Assembly: GCA_041548485.1 (NCBI GenBank)
Contig: JBFESP010000002.1
Span: 10,632 to 74,631 of the forward strand
Reading direction: 5' to 3'
Origin: Thermoplasmata archaeon
Lineage (GTDB): Archaea; Thermoplasmatota; Thermoplasmata; UBA10834
Length of the DNA stretch: 64,000 bases
Shown here: positions 58,772 to 63,459 of the stretch, piece after piece
Layout of the letters: the number at the start of each line of letters is the position of its first letter
Position numbering within the stretch: position 1 is the first letter of the stretch
Notes under the pieces: model-generated
The model's database searches: none
The model's input: only the letters and a program-made list of their open reading frames with translations
What the model was told of the DNA's origin: nothing
Program-made: the position numbers and the translations under genes

Positions 58772-60007
58772 TCAGGAGTCCTTCGACTCATCCCCACCTG
58801 GGATGTCATCGGGACGGCGAGCCTTCCGCCTCATCCTACGTGCGATGAATATCAGAGAGACCAGAGCGACGAATCCACACACCACGACGAAGGCGATGAT
58901 ATGTTCCTGGATCCAGTCTCTTACGCTTCCGATGAATCCGGATTCATAGATTCCCAACGTCGAGCCATGAGAAACCATGGTCGTACGGTTGTCCACTGGA
59001 AGAATGGTGTGCAACACCATTCCTGCACCAGTAGTGAAGTAGGATGAGTCGACGAGAGCGGAAGTACCGGAGACCACCCCATCCATCATAGCCTCGGTCT
59101 CCCAGAAGTAGAATGCCTGGACGACACCGTCTTCCTTCGCGAACCGGGTCTTCTGCACCAAGTCCGATGTCTCCCTGAACTCATGGGAGTAGTTCTCCTC
59201 CATCTCCCTTTCGTCCACCAGGGCGGAGACCTCCGTCGTTGCCGTGCCGCCGATCGGTGAATCCTCCACCAACTGGAACATATTCGTTGAGCCGCCACCC
59301 TGGAGCATCTGCTCGAGCACGACACCATCAACATCGACATGGTCGTTCAGCCTCAATGTGAAATTCATCCTCATCTGCGTCTTGCCGTCGATGATGTAGG
59401 TTCCACCAGGGCTCTCGCAAACCACAGACTCCTCGGCAAGGAAGAACCAGAACGACAGCAATGCCCAATCAGGAACCACGAGAGTCTCGTTCTCGCCGAC
59501 GACATAGGCGTGGACGGAGGCGTTCATGCCGACAACGACATACTGGCCATACTGACTGCTGTGGCCTTGCTCGGGCGTCGAGAGGTTCCAGTCCACGTGG
59601 TTCGAATCAAGGAAGACGGTGAACTCTGCCTCCGGCGGGTCGAAAATGCCATCTCCGTCTGTGTCGTTGAACAGGTACATCCTGGGGCACCCCACCTCGA
59701 ATGTCGGGCTGAAGGGGTCGAGTTCATGCCTGAATATCACCCTGGGCCAGTCGCTAGTGATAGCCACGCTGAAATTCCCCGAGAGCAGGTTGATCTTATG
59801 TGGAAGGTCTATGCTGACGTACAGCTCGTAATCATCAGAATCGGCGCCGCTGGAGACCATGGTCGAAGTGACCAGCATGGCGAGGCCAAGCGAGGCAGCG
59901 AGAATCCTCTTCGGAGCTGCAGCAGCCACCGTTCTTCCTCGGACGACCACAAGACGCACGTGGGGAAAAAGTTTCTCATGCAGGGGCGAAGCTGTCGACG
60001 GCCACAC
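58772..60007 (-). CDS. secreted surface protein with an N-terminal signal peptide and a C-terminal transmembrane anchor plus basic tail
   Basis: ILAASLGLAMLVTSTMVSSGA signal-like segment, several N-x-S/T sequons, C-terminal IIAFVVVCGFVALVSLIFIARRMRRKARR anchor. Directly downstream of the JAMM gene on the same strand. Confidence 0.5.
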   Translation of the reverse strand: MWPSTASPLHEKLFPHVRLVVVRGRTVAAAAPKRILAASLGLAMLVTSTMVSSGADSDDYELYVSIDLPHKINLLSGNFSVAITSDWPRVIFRHELDPFSPTFEVGCPRMYLFNDTDGDGIFDPPEAEFTVFLDSNHVDWNLSTPEQGHSSQYGQYVVVGMNASVHAYVVGENETLVVPDWALLSFWFFLAEESVVCESPGGTYIIDGKTQMRMNFTLRLNDHVDVDGVVLEQMLQGGGSTNMFQLVEDSPIGGTATTEVSALVDEREMEENYSHEFRETSDLVQKTRFAKEDGVVQAFYFWETEAMMDGVVSGTSALVDSSYFTTGAGMVLHTILPVDNRTTMVSHGSTLGIYESGFIGSVRDWIQEHIIAFVVVCGFVALVSLIFIARRMRRKARRPDDIPGGDESKDS

Positions 60008-60023
60008 GAGGGGGATGATGCCT

Positions 60024-60647
60024 TCAGCCTTGCGTGCTAGCCCTGAGACGCCTCAACTTCGGCCCGCCCTCAGAGACGAGCGCAAACGGCACTTCGGCGT
60101 ATCCACCCTCCGAGAGTTTGAAGACCTTGACCTCCCTGTTGACTGGATCGACCACCAGAGCACAGTGATAAGGCTGGTCGAAAAGGGTTCTCTGGGTACG
60201 CAGATCGGTCCGGGAGAGGAAACATGTGTGTCCGGGATGGGAATGGTACCATCCGACTATGACGTAGTCGAATCCCGCACCGTCGAGTTCCTTGAAGAGC
60301 CCTGGCAACGCGTCCGGATCGAACCTGACCTTAGCCGGCGTATTCTCTAGGTCGGTCGTCCCGATGTTCATGACCACGGCATAGGCTTTCCCCCTCCATA
60401 CACTCACCTCGCCCAGCAGTAGCCCCATGACTTCTAGGCGGTCCGGGGCGGCCTTGACCGCCTGGTGCCGTATTCTGCTCTCAGCCAGCGTCGAAATGTA
60501 CAAATCGAACGCCTCTCCGGACCTTGACATCTCCTCGTACAAGCCAATCGACTCCTCGGATAGCCAATCATGTGGACGAGGGGCCACTGGTGGAGCGCGT
60601 TCAGGGACATCCCTCCTGCTCTCTCCAACGACTTTAGGCCTGGCCAT
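60024..60647 (-). CDS. JAMM/MPN+ metalloisopeptidase (Rpn11/HvJAMM-like deubiquitinase/desampylase)
   Basis: EVMGLLLGE (conserved Glu), VGWYHSHPGHTCFLSRTDL (H-x-H-x7-S-x2-D JAMM zinc motif). Confidence 0.85.
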   Translation of the reverse strand: MARPKVVGESRRDVPERAPPVAPRPHDWLSEESIGLYEEMSRSGEAFDLYISTLAESRIRHQAVKAAPDRLEVMGLLLGEVSVWRGKAYAVVMNIGTTDLENTPAKVRFDPDALPGLFKELDGAGFDYVIVGWYHSHPGHTCFLSRTDLRTQRTLFDQPYHCALVVDPVNREVKVFKLSEGGYAEVPFALVSEGGPKLRRLRASTQG

Positions 60648-61161
60648 TCATCTCACCGATGACCCTGATGCGCCTATCGGACTGGTCGACCGATACGGGG
60701 GGTGTGTACGCGCTGCGGTTGAAGTATTCGGCCGCTCTCGTGCATGTGTCGCTGCCAAAAGGGTTGGCGGGATTCGGATTCACGAGGAGCCACTCGATCC
60801 CTCTCACGAAGGCGAGAAGCGTCGAGCTGAAGTCCCAGTTCTCAAGAAGCTTCGTACAGACGTAACCGCCGTCCTCCGGCGGCATTATGTTCGGATGGAA
60901 TATAGCCGTGCGCCACTTCACGATGGGCTTCTCTGCGGGGTACTCATCGGTGATCAAGACCGCCATCCGGTGGACGAACCGATGAACCACCTTTCCGTCT
61001 TCCCAGCACGGACCCGGTACACGCAGGAACGTCACGTTGATGAGTATCGGGAATGAGGAGAGCCAGGAGTCAGATACCGATATGTGGTGTCTCAGCTCCC
61101 GCTGGCATATCTCTACCTCGTTCTTCAGCCTGATCCGCAGAACGTCCTTTGGGAGGGCCAT
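60634..61161 (-). CDS. UBC-fold ubiquitin-conjugating enzyme (E2)-like protein
   Basis: AIFHPNIMPPEDGGYVCTKLLENWDFSSTLLAFVRGIEWLLVNPNPANPFG reproduces the E2 active-site signature: HPN, catalytic Cys 10 residues later, W, and the LL..PNP..P motif. Confidence 0.85.
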   Translation of the reverse strand: MALPKDVLRIRLKNEVEICQRELRHHISVSDSWLSSFPILINVTFLRVPGPCWEDGKVVHRFVHRMAVLITDEYPAEKPIVKWRTAIFHPNIMPPEDGGYVCTKLLENWDFSSTLLAFVRGIEWLLVNPNPANPFGSDTCTRAAEYFNRSAYTPPVSVDQSDRRIRVIGEMNGQA

Positions 61162-61166
61162 CTTGA

Positions 61167-61355
61167 CTATCCGCCCTCGGGGTCGGGAATGAGCTCCAGC
61201 GTGTCGTCTTCCCGGACACCTGCATCCTTCAGGGCGGTGCTGCCCCTGAGCACCTTCTTCCCTTTGCGAACCACATACGCGCCCATATCCTTGTTCCAGA
61301 AGGTGGCTGCGCTCTCGATTATCTCGTCGACCGTGTTCTCGTGATCCAACTCCAT
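61167..61355 (-). CDS. ubiquitin-like small protein (beta-grasp) ending in Gly-Gly followed directly by the stop codon
   Basis: 62-aa ORF MELDHENTV...GKKVLRGSTALKDAGVREDDTLELIPDPEGG*. Its size, C-terminal GG and position between the E1 and E2 genes support the call. Confidence 0.7.
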   Translation of the reverse strand: MELDHENTVDEIIESAATFWNKDMGAYVVRKGKKVLRGSTALKDAGVREDDTLELIPDPEGG

Positions 61356-61466
61356 CTCAACCGTAGCACCTGTCTCGGCGTTCTTGACCTTGATTCGGTA
61401 CGGCAGAAAACCACCAGTGTCTGGACCGCTGAGACGACCTTAATCCTTTCGCCTACGTGTAGTCGC

Positions 61467-62282
61467 TCATCTGGCGTGAACGGGGCATGATGGATCGATG
61501 GGTACCTCGAACTCCTCTGAGACGTTACGCCTTCCATCGTAGTAGAACGCGGTCGAAAGCAACAGATCCTCCCGACCGGATACAAACTTCAACGCTTCAC
61601 GAACCATTACAGCCGATATCACGCTCGTCGTCGTGATCTCGGCAGCCAACCTCGGCTCGTGGAAGACCACATCCGCACCTGTGCAACTGAACCGGATTCC
61701 TGCCACACGCGCGTGTGAGCTGTTCATCCCACACTGAAGGCATGGGCCCTCAGGAGGACTCACAATCGCCACCTTCCCCGAGAGACCATCCATTCCGCCA
61801 TCAATGTATGGTTTGTTGGAGTGGTACGAGTGAGAGTTCACGTGCATCCTCGCGACGATGTTGTCCAGACATCCGAGAACGATATCATGCCTGGTGAAGA
61901 TGTCGGGTGGGGCGCGCTCCACCGGCTCGGTGACAGCCTCTACCTTGAGTCCTTCTCCGATGCGCTCCATGCCCCTTGCTAGCGCTTCCGCCTTGAACCT
62001 CCGGCCCCCCGAATCATTCATGTTGAAGAATAGGCATCGGTTGAGGTTCGAGCCCACCACGCGGTCCATATCCACTATCGTCACTTTCCGAAACCCGGAC
62101 AGTGCAAGGTTCTTGCCGACCTCGTTCCCGAGAGCTCCTGCTCCCACCATGAGCACCTTCGCCCTGAATATCGCGTCCACGTCCAGCCATTCGATCCTTC
62201 GGGACCTGTCGAACCTATCCTCGTCCGTGGCGCCAGGGCGGATGACTTCCTCCATGGCGGGGTAACGAGCGAACTGGCACAA
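61467..62282 (-). CDS. ThiF/MoeB/E1-like ubiquitin-activating enzyme
   Basis: KVLMVGAGALGNEVGKNLALSGFRKVTIVDMDRVVGSNLNR (Rossmann ATP-binding plus the SNLNR motif of E1/ThiF/MoeB), and the C-terminal CLQC...C..C zinc motif region. Confidence 0.85.
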   Translation of the reverse strand: MCQFARYPAMEEVIRPGATDEDRFDRSRRIEWLDVDAIFRAKVLMVGAGALGNEVGKNLALSGFRKVTIVDMDRVVGSNLNRCLFFNMNDSGGRRFKAEALARGMERIGEGLKVEAVTEPVERAPPDIFTRHDIVLGCLDNIVARMHVNSHSYHSNKPYIDGGMDGLSGKVAIVSPPEGPCLQCGMNSSHARVAGIRFSCTGADVVFHEPRLAAEITTTSVISAVMVREALKFVSGREDLLLSTAFYYDGRRNVSEEFEVPIDPSCPVHAR

Positions 62283-62292
62283 AAACCTTCAG

Positions 62293-63459
62293 TTAGTTCC
62301 AAACCAGTTTGCCGTCGACCATCAACAGCTTCTCCTTCGCAGGATCCTTTCCAACAACCGCGATCGTCGGCGATTTGACGAGCCCGTCCAGATGGATCAG
62401 CGCGTCTGCGTCGCCATCGTAGTTGCTGCCGACAGCGAAATGGCATGTGCCGTACACCTTCTCATCCTCAAGCATGTTGGCGACTATCCTGGCCTTCCTG
62501 TTCAGGCCGATCCCGAGCTCTCCTATGGCGCTCGAGTTCCTCTCGTACTTCCGAGCCTCTGAGGCTTTGAGCTCTCCCTTGGCCGCCATCTTCCTCGTGT
62601 TGCGTTCGCCTAGCCGTATGGATTTCCTGAGAAGGTCTGCCTCGGATGAGCCGGTGATCCTCTTGGCGAACCCGTCCTCGACGTCGACCACGATTGGCCG
62701 GCGAATCACTATCTCTCCGTCGTTGAGGGCGATCGAACCGTCGAACGCTATCGTGCCGTTGGTGGATCCAAGCGCGGGGGATATGTAGACCTCTCCGGAG
62801 GGGACGTTACCGGCGCTCCCGAGCTTCCTGAAGTCTCCGTCGTCTGCCTTCGGATGCCTCCCCCTAACACCGACCGTTATGTCGGTGCCGGAGGGCGCGG
62901 TCACCCTGATGGCGTATGAGTTCTTGAGCGCCTGAACGACACGTCTGCAATCGGCCCTGAGCACGCCATAATCTATCGGAACCGTCCTGGCGAAGCTGTC
63001 AGGAGTGATGCCGGGGGACCAGAAGGCCCGCATCCGGCCTTCGCCATAGAGCATGTCGAACAAGCTGTCGTAGCTCCGCTTCCCCTTGTACCCGTGCTTG
63101 AGTCCGTGCCGGTCCATACCCATGCGGTCCTTGCTTATCGACACGGTCGCCTGGGGCTCTGCGGAGAGGGCTCTCATCACCTCATCCTCGGTGTAGTCGA
63201 ACTGGCCCTTCTCCTTCTGGAACGCCAGGACTGGCACGGCCTTCGATTCCAGGGCCGCATCAAACAGAGCCATCGCGACATCGCGTGTGCCGGGGTTCGG
63301 GTTGGAGATGATCAGAAACCGATCGTTGCGCTTGATGGCGAGAACATCCTTCATCGCAGCTCGAGCGGCCCTCACCAACGAGCGGGAATACGCCTTCCCA
63401 CCCCCGAAGCCGACAGATTCGGGCATACCCACGTAAAGCCACCCGTCCCTCTTAAGCAT
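62293..63459 (-). CDS. M29-family aminopeptidase (aminopeptidase T / AmpS-like)
   Basis: GTDITVGV, PSGEVYISP, HFAVGSNY, IHLDGLV blocks parallel Thermus aminopeptidase T (GTDLTVGL, PTEEVFTAP, HIAFG, VHVDWMI). Confidence 0.7.
   Translation of the reverse strand: MLKRDGWLYVGMPESVGFGGGKAYSRSLVRAARAAMKDVLAIKRNDRFLIISNPNPGTRDVAMALFDAALESKAVPVLAFQKEKGQFDYTEDEVMRALSAEPQATVSISKDRMGMDRHGLKHGYKGKRSYDSLFDMLYGEGRMRAFWSPGITPDSFARTVPIDYGVLRADCRRVVQALKNSYAIRVTAPSGTDITVGVRGRHPKADDGDFRKLGSAGNVPSGEVYISPALGSTNGTIAFDGSIALNDGEIVIRRPIVVDVEDGFAKRITGSSEADLLRKSIRLGERNTRKMAAKGELKASEARKYERNSSAIGELGIGLNRKARIVANMLEDEKVYGTCHFAVGSNYDGDADALIHLDGLVKSPTIAVVGKDPAKEKLLMVDGKLVWN

Follow-up and report, generated by a model that had tools for sequence, protein, structure and literature searches.

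A chromosomal cassette for a predicted ubiquitin-like conjugation system, with E1, modifier, canonical E2 and JAMM protease, in Thermoplasmata

Introduction

To our knowledge, Caldiarchaeum subterraneum (Aigarchaeota), an uncultured organism, has supplied the only proteins with which eukaryote-like ubiquitylation has been demonstrated for archaea; for the Asgard archaea it is inferred. The Caldiarchaeum and Asgard operons known as Clusters I and II (PMC5654768; CsRpn11, PMC6043591) bring together in the archaeal chromosome genes for a ubiquitin-type β-grasp protein, a canonical HPN/Cys UBC E2, an Rpn11-like JAMM protease, a small RING E3 (srfp) and an E1 whose C terminus forms a ubiquitin-like domain (UFD) and which has extra domains. 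In Caldiarchaeum the JAMM gene is divergently placed and a 9-aa propeptide is present on the ubiquitin precursor (CsUb, 31% identical to ubiquitin); auto-ubiquitylation by E1 and E2 goes ahead without the E3, and the Rpn11 homologue processes pro-ubiquitin (PMC5654768, PMC6043591). Further prokaryotic clusters of an intermediate kind, Cluster III of Hennell James et al. 2017 and the JAMM-3 group of Fuchs et al. 2018, are outlined in the text of these sources as containing a Ub-like protein, E1, E2 and JAMM and no E3. As given there, their E1 is devoid of the C-terminal UBL domain, their JAMM is nearer to Rpn11 and CSN5 than the desampylases are, and the E2s of Cluster III are reported to group with bacterial E2-like proteins.

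Two other types of system have a similar composition. The bacterial anti-phage system BilABCD (Type I/II) is composed of a Ubl, an E2, a JAB-type DUB and an E1, where E1 and E2 conjugate the Ubl without an E3 or a UFD, and maturation of the Ubl as well as its removal is the work of the DUB (PMC10557695). The Bil E1 has two adenylation domains in tandem, one inactive and one active, followed in the list of its parts by a Cys domain; the E2 is of the divergent CEHH or Prok-E2 type without HPN, the gene order is Ubl-E2-DUB-E1, and the operons are found patchily in defence islands. The archaeal SAMP/UbaA/HvJAMM1 systems have a small, homodimer-type, MoeB-like E1, a β-grasp modifier ending in GG and a reversing JAMM, and are without E2; the SAMPs resemble MoaD/ThiS and serve as sulfur carriers too, and in the case of Haloferax UbaA the SAMP system combines the conjugation and sulfur roles. 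For the E1 alone an analogy is provided by the eukaryotic UBA5-UFC1-UFM1, in which the E1 is minimal and homodimeric, carries its catalytic Cys within the crossover region and charges a dedicated E2 without a UFD; the E2 there, UFC1, is non-canonical and has no HPN, the UFL1 E3 complex is required for UFM1 conjugation, and orthology is not implied.

Here we describe a cassette of this kind in a 64,000-nucleotide stretch of a Thermoplasmata chromosome, referred to as the window. No description or test of the Thermoplasmata operon was found in the literature, and Thermoplasmata are named neither by Hennell James et al. 2017 nor by Fuchs et al. 2018 in the text of paper or supplement on which the above outline of Cluster III and JAMM-3 is based.

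Results and Discussion

Layout and distribution of the cassette

The cassette is composed of four adjacent genes on the minus strand in the order E1, Ubl, E2 and JAMM, as had been claimed in an earlier note made from the letters of the window. The coordinates bear this out, including the 14-nt overlap between the JAMM and E2 genes and the 5 nt separating the Ubl stop from the E2 start. All motifs quoted in that note were found (SNLNR in the E1; HPN, C, W and PNP in the E2; H135-S-H137...S145..D148 in the JAMM), and in the HMM searches ThiF, UQ_con and JAB scored above the curated Pfam cut-offs. These scores are far beyond chance, and the gene set recurs in 80 fetched loci; the four-gene set is real.

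The note had likened the system to rare eukaryote-like ones. An E2 relative is encoded in 282 GTDB species genomes, so the cassette is not rare; the complete Thermoplasmata genomes CP070732 and OY970070 are among its carriers. Our locus comparisons cover 80 fetched and kept loci, all of which are named Thermoplasmata or Thermoplasmatota, Methanomassiliicoccales or, vaguer, Methanobacteriota/Euryarchaeota. The Ubl, E2 and JAMM genes form an almost invariant triad; in essentially all 80 loci they lie side by side and are read in one direction, a linkage that runs through the class. The E1 gene is found immediately upstream of the triad in most loci and is unlinked in one subclade. Among cluster representatives there are also fusion proteins, five of Ubl-GG-E2 and two of E2-JAMM, which place the three proteins in one pathway and require cleavage after the GG.

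The ubiquitin-like protein and its start codon

The open reading frame listed for the small protein, 61167-61355(-), has 62 aa from an ATG, and this was the length given in the earlier note. It ends in ...IPDPEGG with a TAG directly after; the protein is encoded in mature form, with GG, a stop codon and no tail, unlike CsUb with its propeptide. The same holds for 60 of 79 relatives from the fetched loci, which stop exactly at GG, the others having tails of 1-8 aa. At its 5' end the gene extends further than listed. All relatives have kept the in-frame sequence before the ATG (…LPYRIKVKNAETGATVE-MELD…), which evolves in the manner of a coding region, synonymous and non-synonymous substitutions standing at 2230:964 as against 205:2722 just upstream, and in most other genomes the gene callers annotate the homologue as a 79-aa protein. 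These observations speak for 79 aa instead of 62 aa, and from the substitution ratio we propose that coding begins at CTG 61406-61404 (gene at 61167..61406, minus strand). The 17 additional codons lie between the E1 stop and the listed ATG, where the note had seen no plausible ORF; that statement was wrong, and the gap between E1 and Ubl shrinks from 111 nt to about 60 nt.

The 79-aa form was modelled with AF2 (pLDDT 89) as a ββαβββ β-grasp, with β1 at residues 3-9 and β2 at residues 15-20. In this model the first 17 codons encode β1 and most of β2, both of which are missing from the 62-aa ORF; a product made from the internal ATG would be devoid of β1 and probably non-functional. The best Foldseek matches are SUMO1, ubiquitin, Hub1 and the Caldiarchaeum ubiquitin (6fnn_C), with TM scores of 0.80-0.86; the score is 0.86 to both human and Caldiarchaeum ubiquitin, at a sequence identity to ubiquitin of about 22%, less than that of CsUb. 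No Pfam family reached its threshold and no ThiS/MoaD match was present even at E = 1. With no significant match to a sequence profile, the assignment as a modifier rests on predicted structure, GG terminus and gene context; the fold itself, a β-grasp of the ubiquitin/SUMO type, is confidently predicted.

The CTG itself appears to be used as start codon. The position is occupied by CTG in the window and by CTG, TTG, GTG or ATG in relatives, and a GGTGGT (61410..61415, minus strand, 4 nt upstream of the CTG) is nearly invariant in front of it in a DNA alignment of 13 loci, whichever NTG comes next; it is also visible in 27 CTG-bearing sequences. This hexamer may act as a Shine-Dalgarno-like element. 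A CTG start is unusual, which counts against our preferred reading; as a further reading, the conserved weak start (CTG/TTG/GTG) may determine how much Ubl is made. In the interval from E1 stop to Ubl start the alignment shows a conserved consensus CTACAnGTAnnCGAAA...TA(T/A)AA. The corresponding intergenic element in the window, CTACACGTAGGCGAAAGGATTAAGG (61438..61462, minus strand), may be a BRE/TATA-like promoter for Ubl, E2 and JAMM, a reading which fits the three genes staying together where the E1 gene has moved away.

The E2 enzyme and the JAMM protease

The E2 gene (60634..61161, minus strand) encodes a 175-aa protein matching Pfam UQ_con (2.8e-12; 46.9 bits against a cut-off of 27), and none of the Prok-E2 families of Pfam was found at E≤1. 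Its PDB matches, at about 1e-10, are the eukaryotic enzymes UBE2A, UBE2E1 and UBC9, whose catalytic Cys falls on C102 in the alignments. The residues H89-P90-N91, C102, W109 and P129-N130-P131 are invariant in a 17-sequence family alignment, whose mean column identity is 66%. By these sequence characters the protein is a canonical HPN/Cys UBC, and the description as a bona fide UBC-fold E2 stands.

The JAMM gene (60024..60647, minus strand) encodes a 207-aa protein matching Pfam JAB (5e-10; 39.7 bits against a cut-off of 22.5) and Prok-JAB (4.1e-08). Its motif residues are E72, H135, H137, S145 and D148; in an alignment of 59 sequences the two histidines are invariant and the other three at least 95% conserved. 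The best PDB match is the Caldiarchaeum Rpn11 homologue 6fjv (5.6e-13), its best solved relative, followed by eukaryotic Rpn11 and CSN5. The desampylase model of the HvJAMM1 type (NF041370) gave 32.6 bits against a cut-off of 130. Judged by sequence the protein is an Rpn11-like JAMM/MPN+ metalloisopeptidase, nearer to Rpn11 and CSN5 than desampylases are, as is the JAMM of the JAMM-3/Cluster III group in the text cited above. Its gene, overlapping that of the E2, is predicted to be co-transcribed with it, unlike the divergent arrangement in Caldiarchaeum.

The E1 enzyme and the sulfur-carrier reading

The E1 gene is listed as 61467..62282 on the minus strand (271 aa, from a TTG at 62282); translation probably starts instead at 62255, where a conserved ATG would yield 262 aa, and an identical 262-aa protein has been called elsewhere (P0407). 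It is a ThiF-family adenylyltransferase (Pfam ThiF 1.5e-44, 152 bits) with one Rossmann adenylation domain carrying G47xG49xxG52, D71, S78-N-L-N-R82 and D140, and with a Cys3His zinc site (C181, C184, C266, H269). A further cysteine, Cys200, lies in a disordered crossover loop with the motif R-x-S-C-T-G. ATP-binding residues, zinc residues and Cys200 are all invariant in a 57-sequence family alignment. Within its 262-271 aa there is neither UFD, nor separate Cys domain, nor rhodanese domain. The sequence matches in the PDB are led by UBA6, UBA3, SAE2 and UBA1 (about 1e-18), ahead of MoeB (1.8e-14), which aligns along the full length; the top Foldseek hits of the AF2 model (pLDDT 82) are ThiF (1zud), UBA5 (6h78) and MoeB (1jw9), and the Cys sits in a low-confidence loop, like in MoeB and UBA5. 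The model points to a minimal homodimeric E1 of ThiF/MoeB/UBA5 size.

Canonical E1s recruit and charge their E2s through the UFD and the Cys domain. This E1 has neither, which counts against our preferred reading of the cassette. So do its best scores with generic ThiF/MoeB profiles, and a part in sulfur transfer is conceivable for it.

An E1 of this size and fold could be an ordinary MoeB/ThiF which thiocarboxylates a β-grasp sulfur carrier of the SAMP/MoaD/ThiS type, with E2 and JAMM as accessory or vestigial genes. The best NCBIfam profiles of the E1 are generic ThiF/MoeB models, in the databases it is named 'molybdopterin/thiamine biosynthesis adenylyltransferase', and archaeal SAMP systems combine both roles. 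We consider this reading very unlikely, since the scores with the ThiF, MoeB and UbaA equivalogs are far under the cut-offs (UbaA, NF047750, 70.3 against 450 bits) and the E1 has no rhodanese domain, since the Ubl model is like ubiquitin/SUMO rather than MoaD/ThiS, and since the E2 has kept its invariant Cys and HPN and is fused to Ubl or JAMM in relatives. In addition, genes for Mo-cofactor, thiamine or tRNA thiolation are linked in none of the 80 loci. The distinction from SAMP/UbaA systems made in the earlier note is therefore upheld, by the conserved E2 and by SAMP, desampylase and MoaD/ThiS models all remaining under their cut-offs.

A cascade with or without E3

Compared with Clusters I and II, the likeness to Caldiarchaeum suggested in the note holds for the Ubl fold, the E2, the JAMM and the clustering of the genes in the chromosome, and fails for the E1, which is single-domain. 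The Thermoplasmata cassette and its surroundings differ furthermore by the lack of a small RING E3. The claim that there is no RING E3 in the locus agrees with our data: a RING-like pattern is absent from every ORF of 30 aa or more in the window of 64 kb, and neither an E3-like gene nor a small zinc-finger gene is conserved within ±6 kb of the cassette in the 80 loci. In gene content and in its UBL-less E1 the cassette is consistent with membership in JAMM-3/Cluster III as outlined in those sources, while its E2, matching only the eukaryote-type UQ_con, departs from the E2s reported for Cluster III.

A true cascade may nevertheless owe its substrate specificity to a ligase (RING, U-box or other) whose gene lies in another part of the genome, as in Caldiarchaeum and Asgard archaea. 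The proteins of Caldiarchaeum, to which JAMM and Ubl are similar, act with a small RING protein (PMC5654768). Even the E1 gene is apart from the triad in one subclade, and components can thus be dispersed. Such an E3 is possible, but we hold it to be the less probable case, given the above searches and the description by Fuchs et al. (PMC6043591) of a prokaryotic JAMM class whose linkage includes Ub, E1 and E2 and leaves out E3. The E2 itself has W-D-F-S in loop 7, as read from its sequence. RING-binding E2s have W-S-P-A at this place, and the difference would argue against a RING partner.

Genome context and the defence reading

The flanking genes encode ribosomal proteins, RpoN, an aminoacyl-tRNA synthetase, TrmO, SIS, MttB and chaperones. 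The GC content of the cassette is 0.58, compared to 0.55-0.61 across the window. M29-like, SIS, endonuclease and ribosomal neighbours are common to the clade of the window (about 37-43 of the 80 loci), across which synteny is kept with genes for M29-like and membrane proteins. A defence island is made unlikely by the housekeeping flanks, the host-like GC and the order-wide synteny, in line with the impression recorded in the note.

This bears on the question whether the cassette is a Bil-like or other E1-E2-JAB anti-virus module, which would put the Ubl on viral proteins. BilABCD has the same four activities, likewise without E3 and UFD (PMC10557695), and the PADLOC E1-E2/JAB models of CBASS-type systems gave weak domain-level matches to the E1 and the JAMM (at best 3.4e-12 for the adenylation core and 1e-3 for JAB). 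The matches to PADLOC and NCBIfam are limited to generic adenylation or JAB cores and lie far under the family cut-offs, and the sole PADLOC match of the E2, a canonical HPN UBC, is at chance level to an unrelated CARF model (0.016). Of the resemblance to Bil proposed in the note a functional analogy remains, while gene order, E1 architecture (one domain against several) and E2 type all differ. Presence of the family in 282 species genomes and a position shared across the clade of the window are the opposite of the patchy, island-borne pattern of defence systems. Altogether a role in defence seems highly improbable.

Proposed function

Our preferred reading, to which we assign a probability of roughly three in four, is that Thermoplasmata possess a system for conjugating a ubiquitin-like protein, encoded in the chromosome and inherited vertically. 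Most likely it carries out reversible Ubl conjugation without E3 or with an unlinked one. We infer the chemical steps and targets as follows. The 79-aa Ubl would be made with its Gly-Gly end already exposed, the homodimeric ThiF/MoeB/UBA5-type E1 would adenylate this C-terminus and then hold the Ubl as a thioester on Cys200 of the flexible crossover loop, and the Ubl would be handed to Cys102 of the E2. From there it would be transferred to lysines of targets, and probably also to E2 itself, E1 or Ubl, with the E3 absent or encoded elsewhere. The Rpn11-like JAMM would cut after Gly-Gly and undo the conjugates, and in relatives with a tailed Ubl or a Ubl-E2 fusion it would also mature the precursor. 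The physiological role would be housekeeping regulation or proteostasis and not defence.

Ubiquitin systems are already known from a few other archaea, and the cassette is a simpler form of them. With it, a canonical E2, a modifier of ubiquitin fold and a protease of the Rpn11 type are found in another archaeal class, one that is large and in part cultivable; their partner here is an E1 of the simplest possible kind, and an E3 is not linked. If active, it would offer a tractable four-protein system for E2 charging without UFD or Cys domain, a test of ubiquitin-like tagging in a cell with a 20S proteasome and no 19S lid, and would bear on whether E2 enzymes predate the Asgard-eukaryote lineage. 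More tentatively, and with rather doubtful prospects, Thermoplasmata, the Methanomassiliicoccales of gut and rumen included, might perform a minimal E3-free ubiquitylation, in which a ThiF-sized homodimeric E1 directly charges a canonical UBC E2 and the E2 picks the targets, as a surviving intermediate between ThiF/SAMP-type activation and eukaryote-type E1-E2-E3 systems. In that case the origin of canonical E2s would lie outside the Asgard/TACK lineage and perhaps predate it.

Annotation of the cassette in genomes

In automated annotation the Ubl appears as 'hypothetical', or is truncated or missed through its non-ATG start, and the E1 is labelled as a cofactor-biosynthesis enzyme; genome surveys consequently under-count the cassette. 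The Thermoplasmatota E2 clade is mentioned in one phylogeny, that of Lu et al. (bioRxiv 10.1101/2023.07.25.550441), where it branches deep within the archaeal E2/UEV proteins. Some members from Thermoplasmatota are already annotated as E2.

Gene layout and domain composition

The cassette is composed of four co-directional ORFs on the minus strand: the E1 gene (61467-62282, 271 aa), a small ORF ending in …PDPEGG-stop (61167-61355 when read from its ATG), the E2 gene (60634-61161, 175 aa) and the JAMM gene (60024-60647, 207 aa). Positions and motifs reported in the earlier note agree exactly with the ORF list of the window, and the genes are real. The 14-nt overlap of the JAMM and E2 genes and the 5 nt between the stop of the ubiquitin-like protein (Ubl) and the E2 start are likewise borne out by the ORF coordinates. 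The predicted profile matches were obtained for ThiF (Pfam, 1.5e-44), UQ_con (2.8e-12) and JAB (5e-10), the UQ_con score being 46.9 bits against a curated cut-off of 27 bits. For the small ORF no family reached significance, the Pfam, NCBIfam and PADLOC profiles giving only chance-level matches (e.g. YukD, 0.047), so its assignment as a Ubl draws on structure prediction. No second copy of the E1, E2, Ubl or JAMM gene was found in the window. The cassette is an E3-less, minimal-E1, eukaryote-like ubiquitin system and not a categorically new one; the interpretation in the earlier note is essentially right, while its Ubl gene model, its E1-Ubl gap and its view of the system as rare need correction.

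Two long antisense ORFs, 60427-61056 (+, 209 aa) and 61084-61344 (+, 86 aa), run counter to the genes for E2, JAMM and Ubl. Equivalent ORFs form clusters across 49 of the 80 loci with E2 relatives that were kept from a scan of GTDB species genomes; since this recurrence is explained by conservation of the sense genes, they were rejected as spurious.

The Ubl gene start and the upstream spacer

All relatives of the small ORF carry a conserved in-frame N-terminal extension, with the sequence '(M)KITVKDAETG…' among distant members and '…(M/L)P(V/F)RIKVKNAETGA(T/S)VE-MELE…' in close ones. The window codes for the same residues in frame 5' of its ATG (LPYRIKVKNAETGATVE) and has no ATG, GTG or TTG between the preceding stop codon and this internal ATG. 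The same lack of a standard start before the conserved coding sequence is found in nine loci (L007, L008, L013, L014, L016, L036, L044, L053 and L073). When the extended sequence was searched against a database, 216 relatives were retrieved, and among the matches listed most are called as 79 aa, starting at exactly the position that holds a CTG in the window. In the DNA alignment an almost invariant GGTGGT precedes the gene, followed 3-4 nt downstream by an NTG codon. This codon is CTG in 27, TTG in 14, ATG in 11 and GTG in 7 of those sequences, out of 79 loci and the window, in which the Ubl end is recognisable.

Substitution patterns among the CTG-bearing sequences switch at this codon. The 16 codons from the CTG to the internal ATG (codons 2-17) show synonymous to non-synonymous counts of 2230:964, the remainder of the gene shows 8165:4085, and the ten triplets 5' of the CTG show 205:2722. 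This switch argues for coding that begins at 61406-61404, and the Ubl gene thus appears to start at this CTG, spanning 61167-61406 on the minus strand and encoding 79 aa. The 62-aa product proposed earlier from the ATG was rejected on the grounds of the upstream in-frame conservation, the substitution pattern, the homologue lengths and a fold which needs residues 1-17; both the Logan gene caller and our ORF lister shorten the gene to this length. The GTG inside GGTGGT is in frame in some relatives, giving 82-aa versions of the protein, and was rejected as the start for this species as it is out of frame in the window. The prevalence of weak start codons may represent a conserved brake on Ubl translation.

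The Ubl gene therefore begins within the 111-nt gap between E1 and Ubl that was described before as empty, and the true spacer is about 60 nt. Directly 3' of the E1 stop, at 61438-61462 on the minus strand, the spacer holds a conserved non-coding element, CTACA(C/G)GTA..CGAAA..(A/T)TTAA/TATAA (also written CTACAnGTA…CGAAA…TA(T/A)AA), found at the same position in L007-L044 of the aligned loci. Measured from the centre of its TATA-like ATTAA it lies about 38 nt before the Ubl start. It possibly acts as a BRE/TATA promoter or is bound by a regulator, giving the Ubl, E2 and JAMM genes a transcript of their own.

Fold and C-terminus of the Ubl

AlphaFold2, run on the 79-aa sequence with 30 homologues, gave a model with a mean pLDDT of 89 and the topology ββαβββ, in which β1 (residues 3-9) and β2 (residues 15-20) sit mostly in the segment absent from the 62-aa ORF. 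The predicted fold is a β-grasp of ubiquitin type: the best Foldseek PDB matches are SUMO1, ubiquitin, Hub1 and the Caldiarchaeum ubiquitin 6fnn_C (TM 0.80-0.86; about 22% identity to ubiquitin), and no MoaD, ThiS or SAMP is present among the best 50. In 60 of 79 loci the Ubl ends exactly at the Gly-Gly, and the others have tails of 1-8 residues. Four distant Ubls carry similar 8-aa tails past GG (L076, ACFQKICL; L080, SCFLKTCL; L082, KCFQKICL; L083, KCLFPKKY). In these loci the Ubl ORF runs into the start of the E2 gene, so the likeness may simply be conserved E2 coding read in another frame.

The E1, E2 and JAMM proteins

The E2 aligns to the eukaryotic UBE2A, UBE2E1 and UBC9 at about 1e-10, with its HPN and Cys102 on the catalytic positions, and, together with the UQ_con score, this upholds its earlier description as a bona fide UBC-fold E2. 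Among solved structures the JAMM protein is nearest in sequence to CsRpn11, the homologue of Rpn11 from Caldiarchaeum (6fjv, 5.6e-13); eukaryotic Rpn11 and CSN5 come next. H135 and H137 do not vary among 59 family members, and conservation is 95% or higher at E72, S145 and D148.

The Rossmann core of the E1 matches UBA6, UBA3, SAE2 and UBA1 at about 1e-18, better than MoeB (1.8e-14); MoeB is the only one of these to align with the E1 from end to end. Its AlphaFold2 model (pLDDT 82) is a single adenylation domain with ThiF, UBA5 and MoeB as best structural matches, and neither a UFD nor an inserted Cys domain is present. The zinc ligands C181, C184, C266 and H269 are invariant in the family alignment, as is Cys200, which is placed in a low-confidence crossover loop that is presumably mobile. 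The true start of the E1 is most likely the ATG at 62255, to judge from the conservation of Met10 and from a 262-aa protein in the databases that is identical.

With a ThiF/MoeB-like enzyme of this kind the cassette could be taken for a sulfur-carrier or SAMP system. This is very improbable: every equivalog cut-off was failed, the Ubl is of ubiquitin type, the E2 has been strictly conserved and in some relatives is joined to its partners, and no cofactor genes are linked. It is possible that the E1 has a dual role and serves a sulfur carrier as well.

Distribution and genomic neighbourhood

The earlier note regarded the system as rare, and this does not hold: when the GTDB species were scanned by pattern, each through one genome, 282 genomes proved to encode a relative of the E2. 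The MAGs of the 80 kept loci bear the names Thermoplasmata, Thermoplasmatota, Thermoplasmatales or Methanomassiliicoccales, or the less specific Methanobacteriota, Euryarchaeota or 'archaeon'. The closest E2 relative is that of Thermoplasmata archaeon SG225.bin4 (94% identity); named members farther off include Ca. Methanomethylophilaceae and Ca. Sysuiplasma, and several are already annotated as 'ubiquitin-conjugating enzyme E2'. Complete genomes with the cassette include CP070732, CP070736, CP070767 and OY970070. The nearest out-groups of the E2 in a representative search are mostly metagenomic proteins. Across the 80 loci the co-directional Ubl-E2-JAMM triad is nearly invariant, and the E1 gene lies immediately upstream in most of them; in one subclade it is displaced or missing from the retrieved stretch.

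An identical E2 is present on 22 metagenomic contigs, and its surroundings are alike on all of them: TrmO, a class-Ib aminoacyl-tRNA synthetase, 4HBT, MttB, the M29/NicX-like gene, the cassette, a membrane protein, SIS, a gene of the AP-endonuclease-2 fold, L18e, L13, S9 and RpoN. The GC content of the cassette (0.58) is like that of the rest of the window. As the earlier note held, the flanks do not resemble a defence island. These housekeeping neighbours and the class-wide distribution argue, together with a canonical E2, a gene order and E1 architecture which differ from those of Bil, and PADLOC and NCBIfam matches at domain level only, against a Bil-like defence module, which we consider very improbable.

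Two flanking genes on the minus strand were rejected as core parts of the cassette, since they are syntenic in only 36-37 of the 80 loci, all of the window's clade. The M29/NicX-like (aminopeptidase-fold) gene (62293-63459) stops 10 nt short of the longest E1 ORF and 37 nt short of its likely ATG, and adjoins E1 in 37 loci; in relatives a gene for an MttB-family methyltransferase lies just upstream of it. A functional tie to the cassette is possible and unsupported. On the other side, the longest ORF of the membrane-protein gene (58772-60007, 392-411 aa, syntenic in 36 loci) starts 16 nt past the JAMM stop. Its product has an N-terminal hydrophobic segment, a C-terminal transmembrane helix and a basic tail, and matches no Pfam family.

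Proposed pathway and relation to known systems

From domain identity, residue conservation, folds and gene linkage we infer the chemical steps and targets of a conjugation pathway. A homodimeric minimal E1 would adenylate the mature 79-aa Ubl, a Ubl thioester would then form on Cys200 of the E1, and the Ubl would pass to Cys102 of the E2 and be joined to lysines, from which the JAMM protein would take it off again. Transfer independent of an E3 has precedent, since auto-modification by E1 and E2 of Caldiarchaeum takes place in the absence of the RING protein (PMC5654768) and Bil E1/E2 conjugation proceeds without E3 or UFD (PMC10557695). The reported lack of a RING E3 in the locus stands: none turned up when every ORF of 30 aa or more in the window was searched with RING regular expressions, and clustering of all ORFs within ±6 kb in the 80 loci gave no conserved E3-like gene. 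An unlinked E3 elsewhere in the genome is unlikely on balance, yet it is a real alternative to the E3-less reading, as this genome was viewed over 64 kb only.

Archaeal ubiquitin toolkits have been described in Aigarchaeota, YNPFFA Crenarchaeota and one Marine Group II cell (Grau-Bové et al., PMC4327156). Hennell James et al. defined Clusters I-III, with Cluster III E1s without UBL domain and Thermoplasmata unnamed (PMC5654768), and the 'JAMM-3' group of Fuchs et al. is linked to Ub, E1 and E2 homologues with no E3, the text giving no taxa (PMC6043591). Lu et al. noted for their E2/UEV tree that 'Ca. Thermoplasmatota E2' branches deeply within the archaeal clade (bioRxiv 10.1101/2023.07.25.550441). 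Comparable systems and the Thermoplasmata E2 clade are thus already known, and the cassette is less surprising than was first held. In the literature searched no description or test of the Thermoplasmata operon was found; undescribed before is the cassette as a system, with its minimal E1, true Ubl gene structure, fusions and class-wide conservation. It is useful as a tractable system and for the study of E2 evolution.

Fusions and related proteins

An exhaustive profile search of 1.84 billion representatives with the E2 alignment returned 2963 relatives, 28 of them at E<=1e-30. Among the top matches, five cluster representatives (P0252, P0318, P0311, P0315 and P0327) have a Ubl joined via Gly-Gly straight to the E2, with junctions such as …IPDPTGG|ANLPEDLL…, and two others are E2-JAMM fusions (P0245, 682 aa; P0259, 534 aa). 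Eukaryotic ubiquitin is likewise made as fusion precursors. Both the Ubl-E2 fusions and the Ubl tails would require a protease cutting after GG, the activity shown for CsRpn11 (PMC6043591, PMC5654768), and are evidence for a single Ubl-E2-JAMM pathway.

The two E2-JAMM proteins have long C-terminal extensions which are low-complexity, acidic and proline-rich. In P0245, which has a CPKC…CPKC zinc ribbon at its end, the JAMM motif has degenerated (HSAP for HSHP); P0259 has an intact JAMM motif and a His at the catalytic Cys position of the E2. A paralogous family of 222-232 aa (P0269, P0272, P0278-P0283, P0287-P0294 and P0314) is composed of an N-terminal Ubl-like domain without the GG end and an E2-like domain, in which HPN is kept and S, K, E, H, N, R, Y or G stands in place of the catalytic Cys, making these proteins UEV-like.
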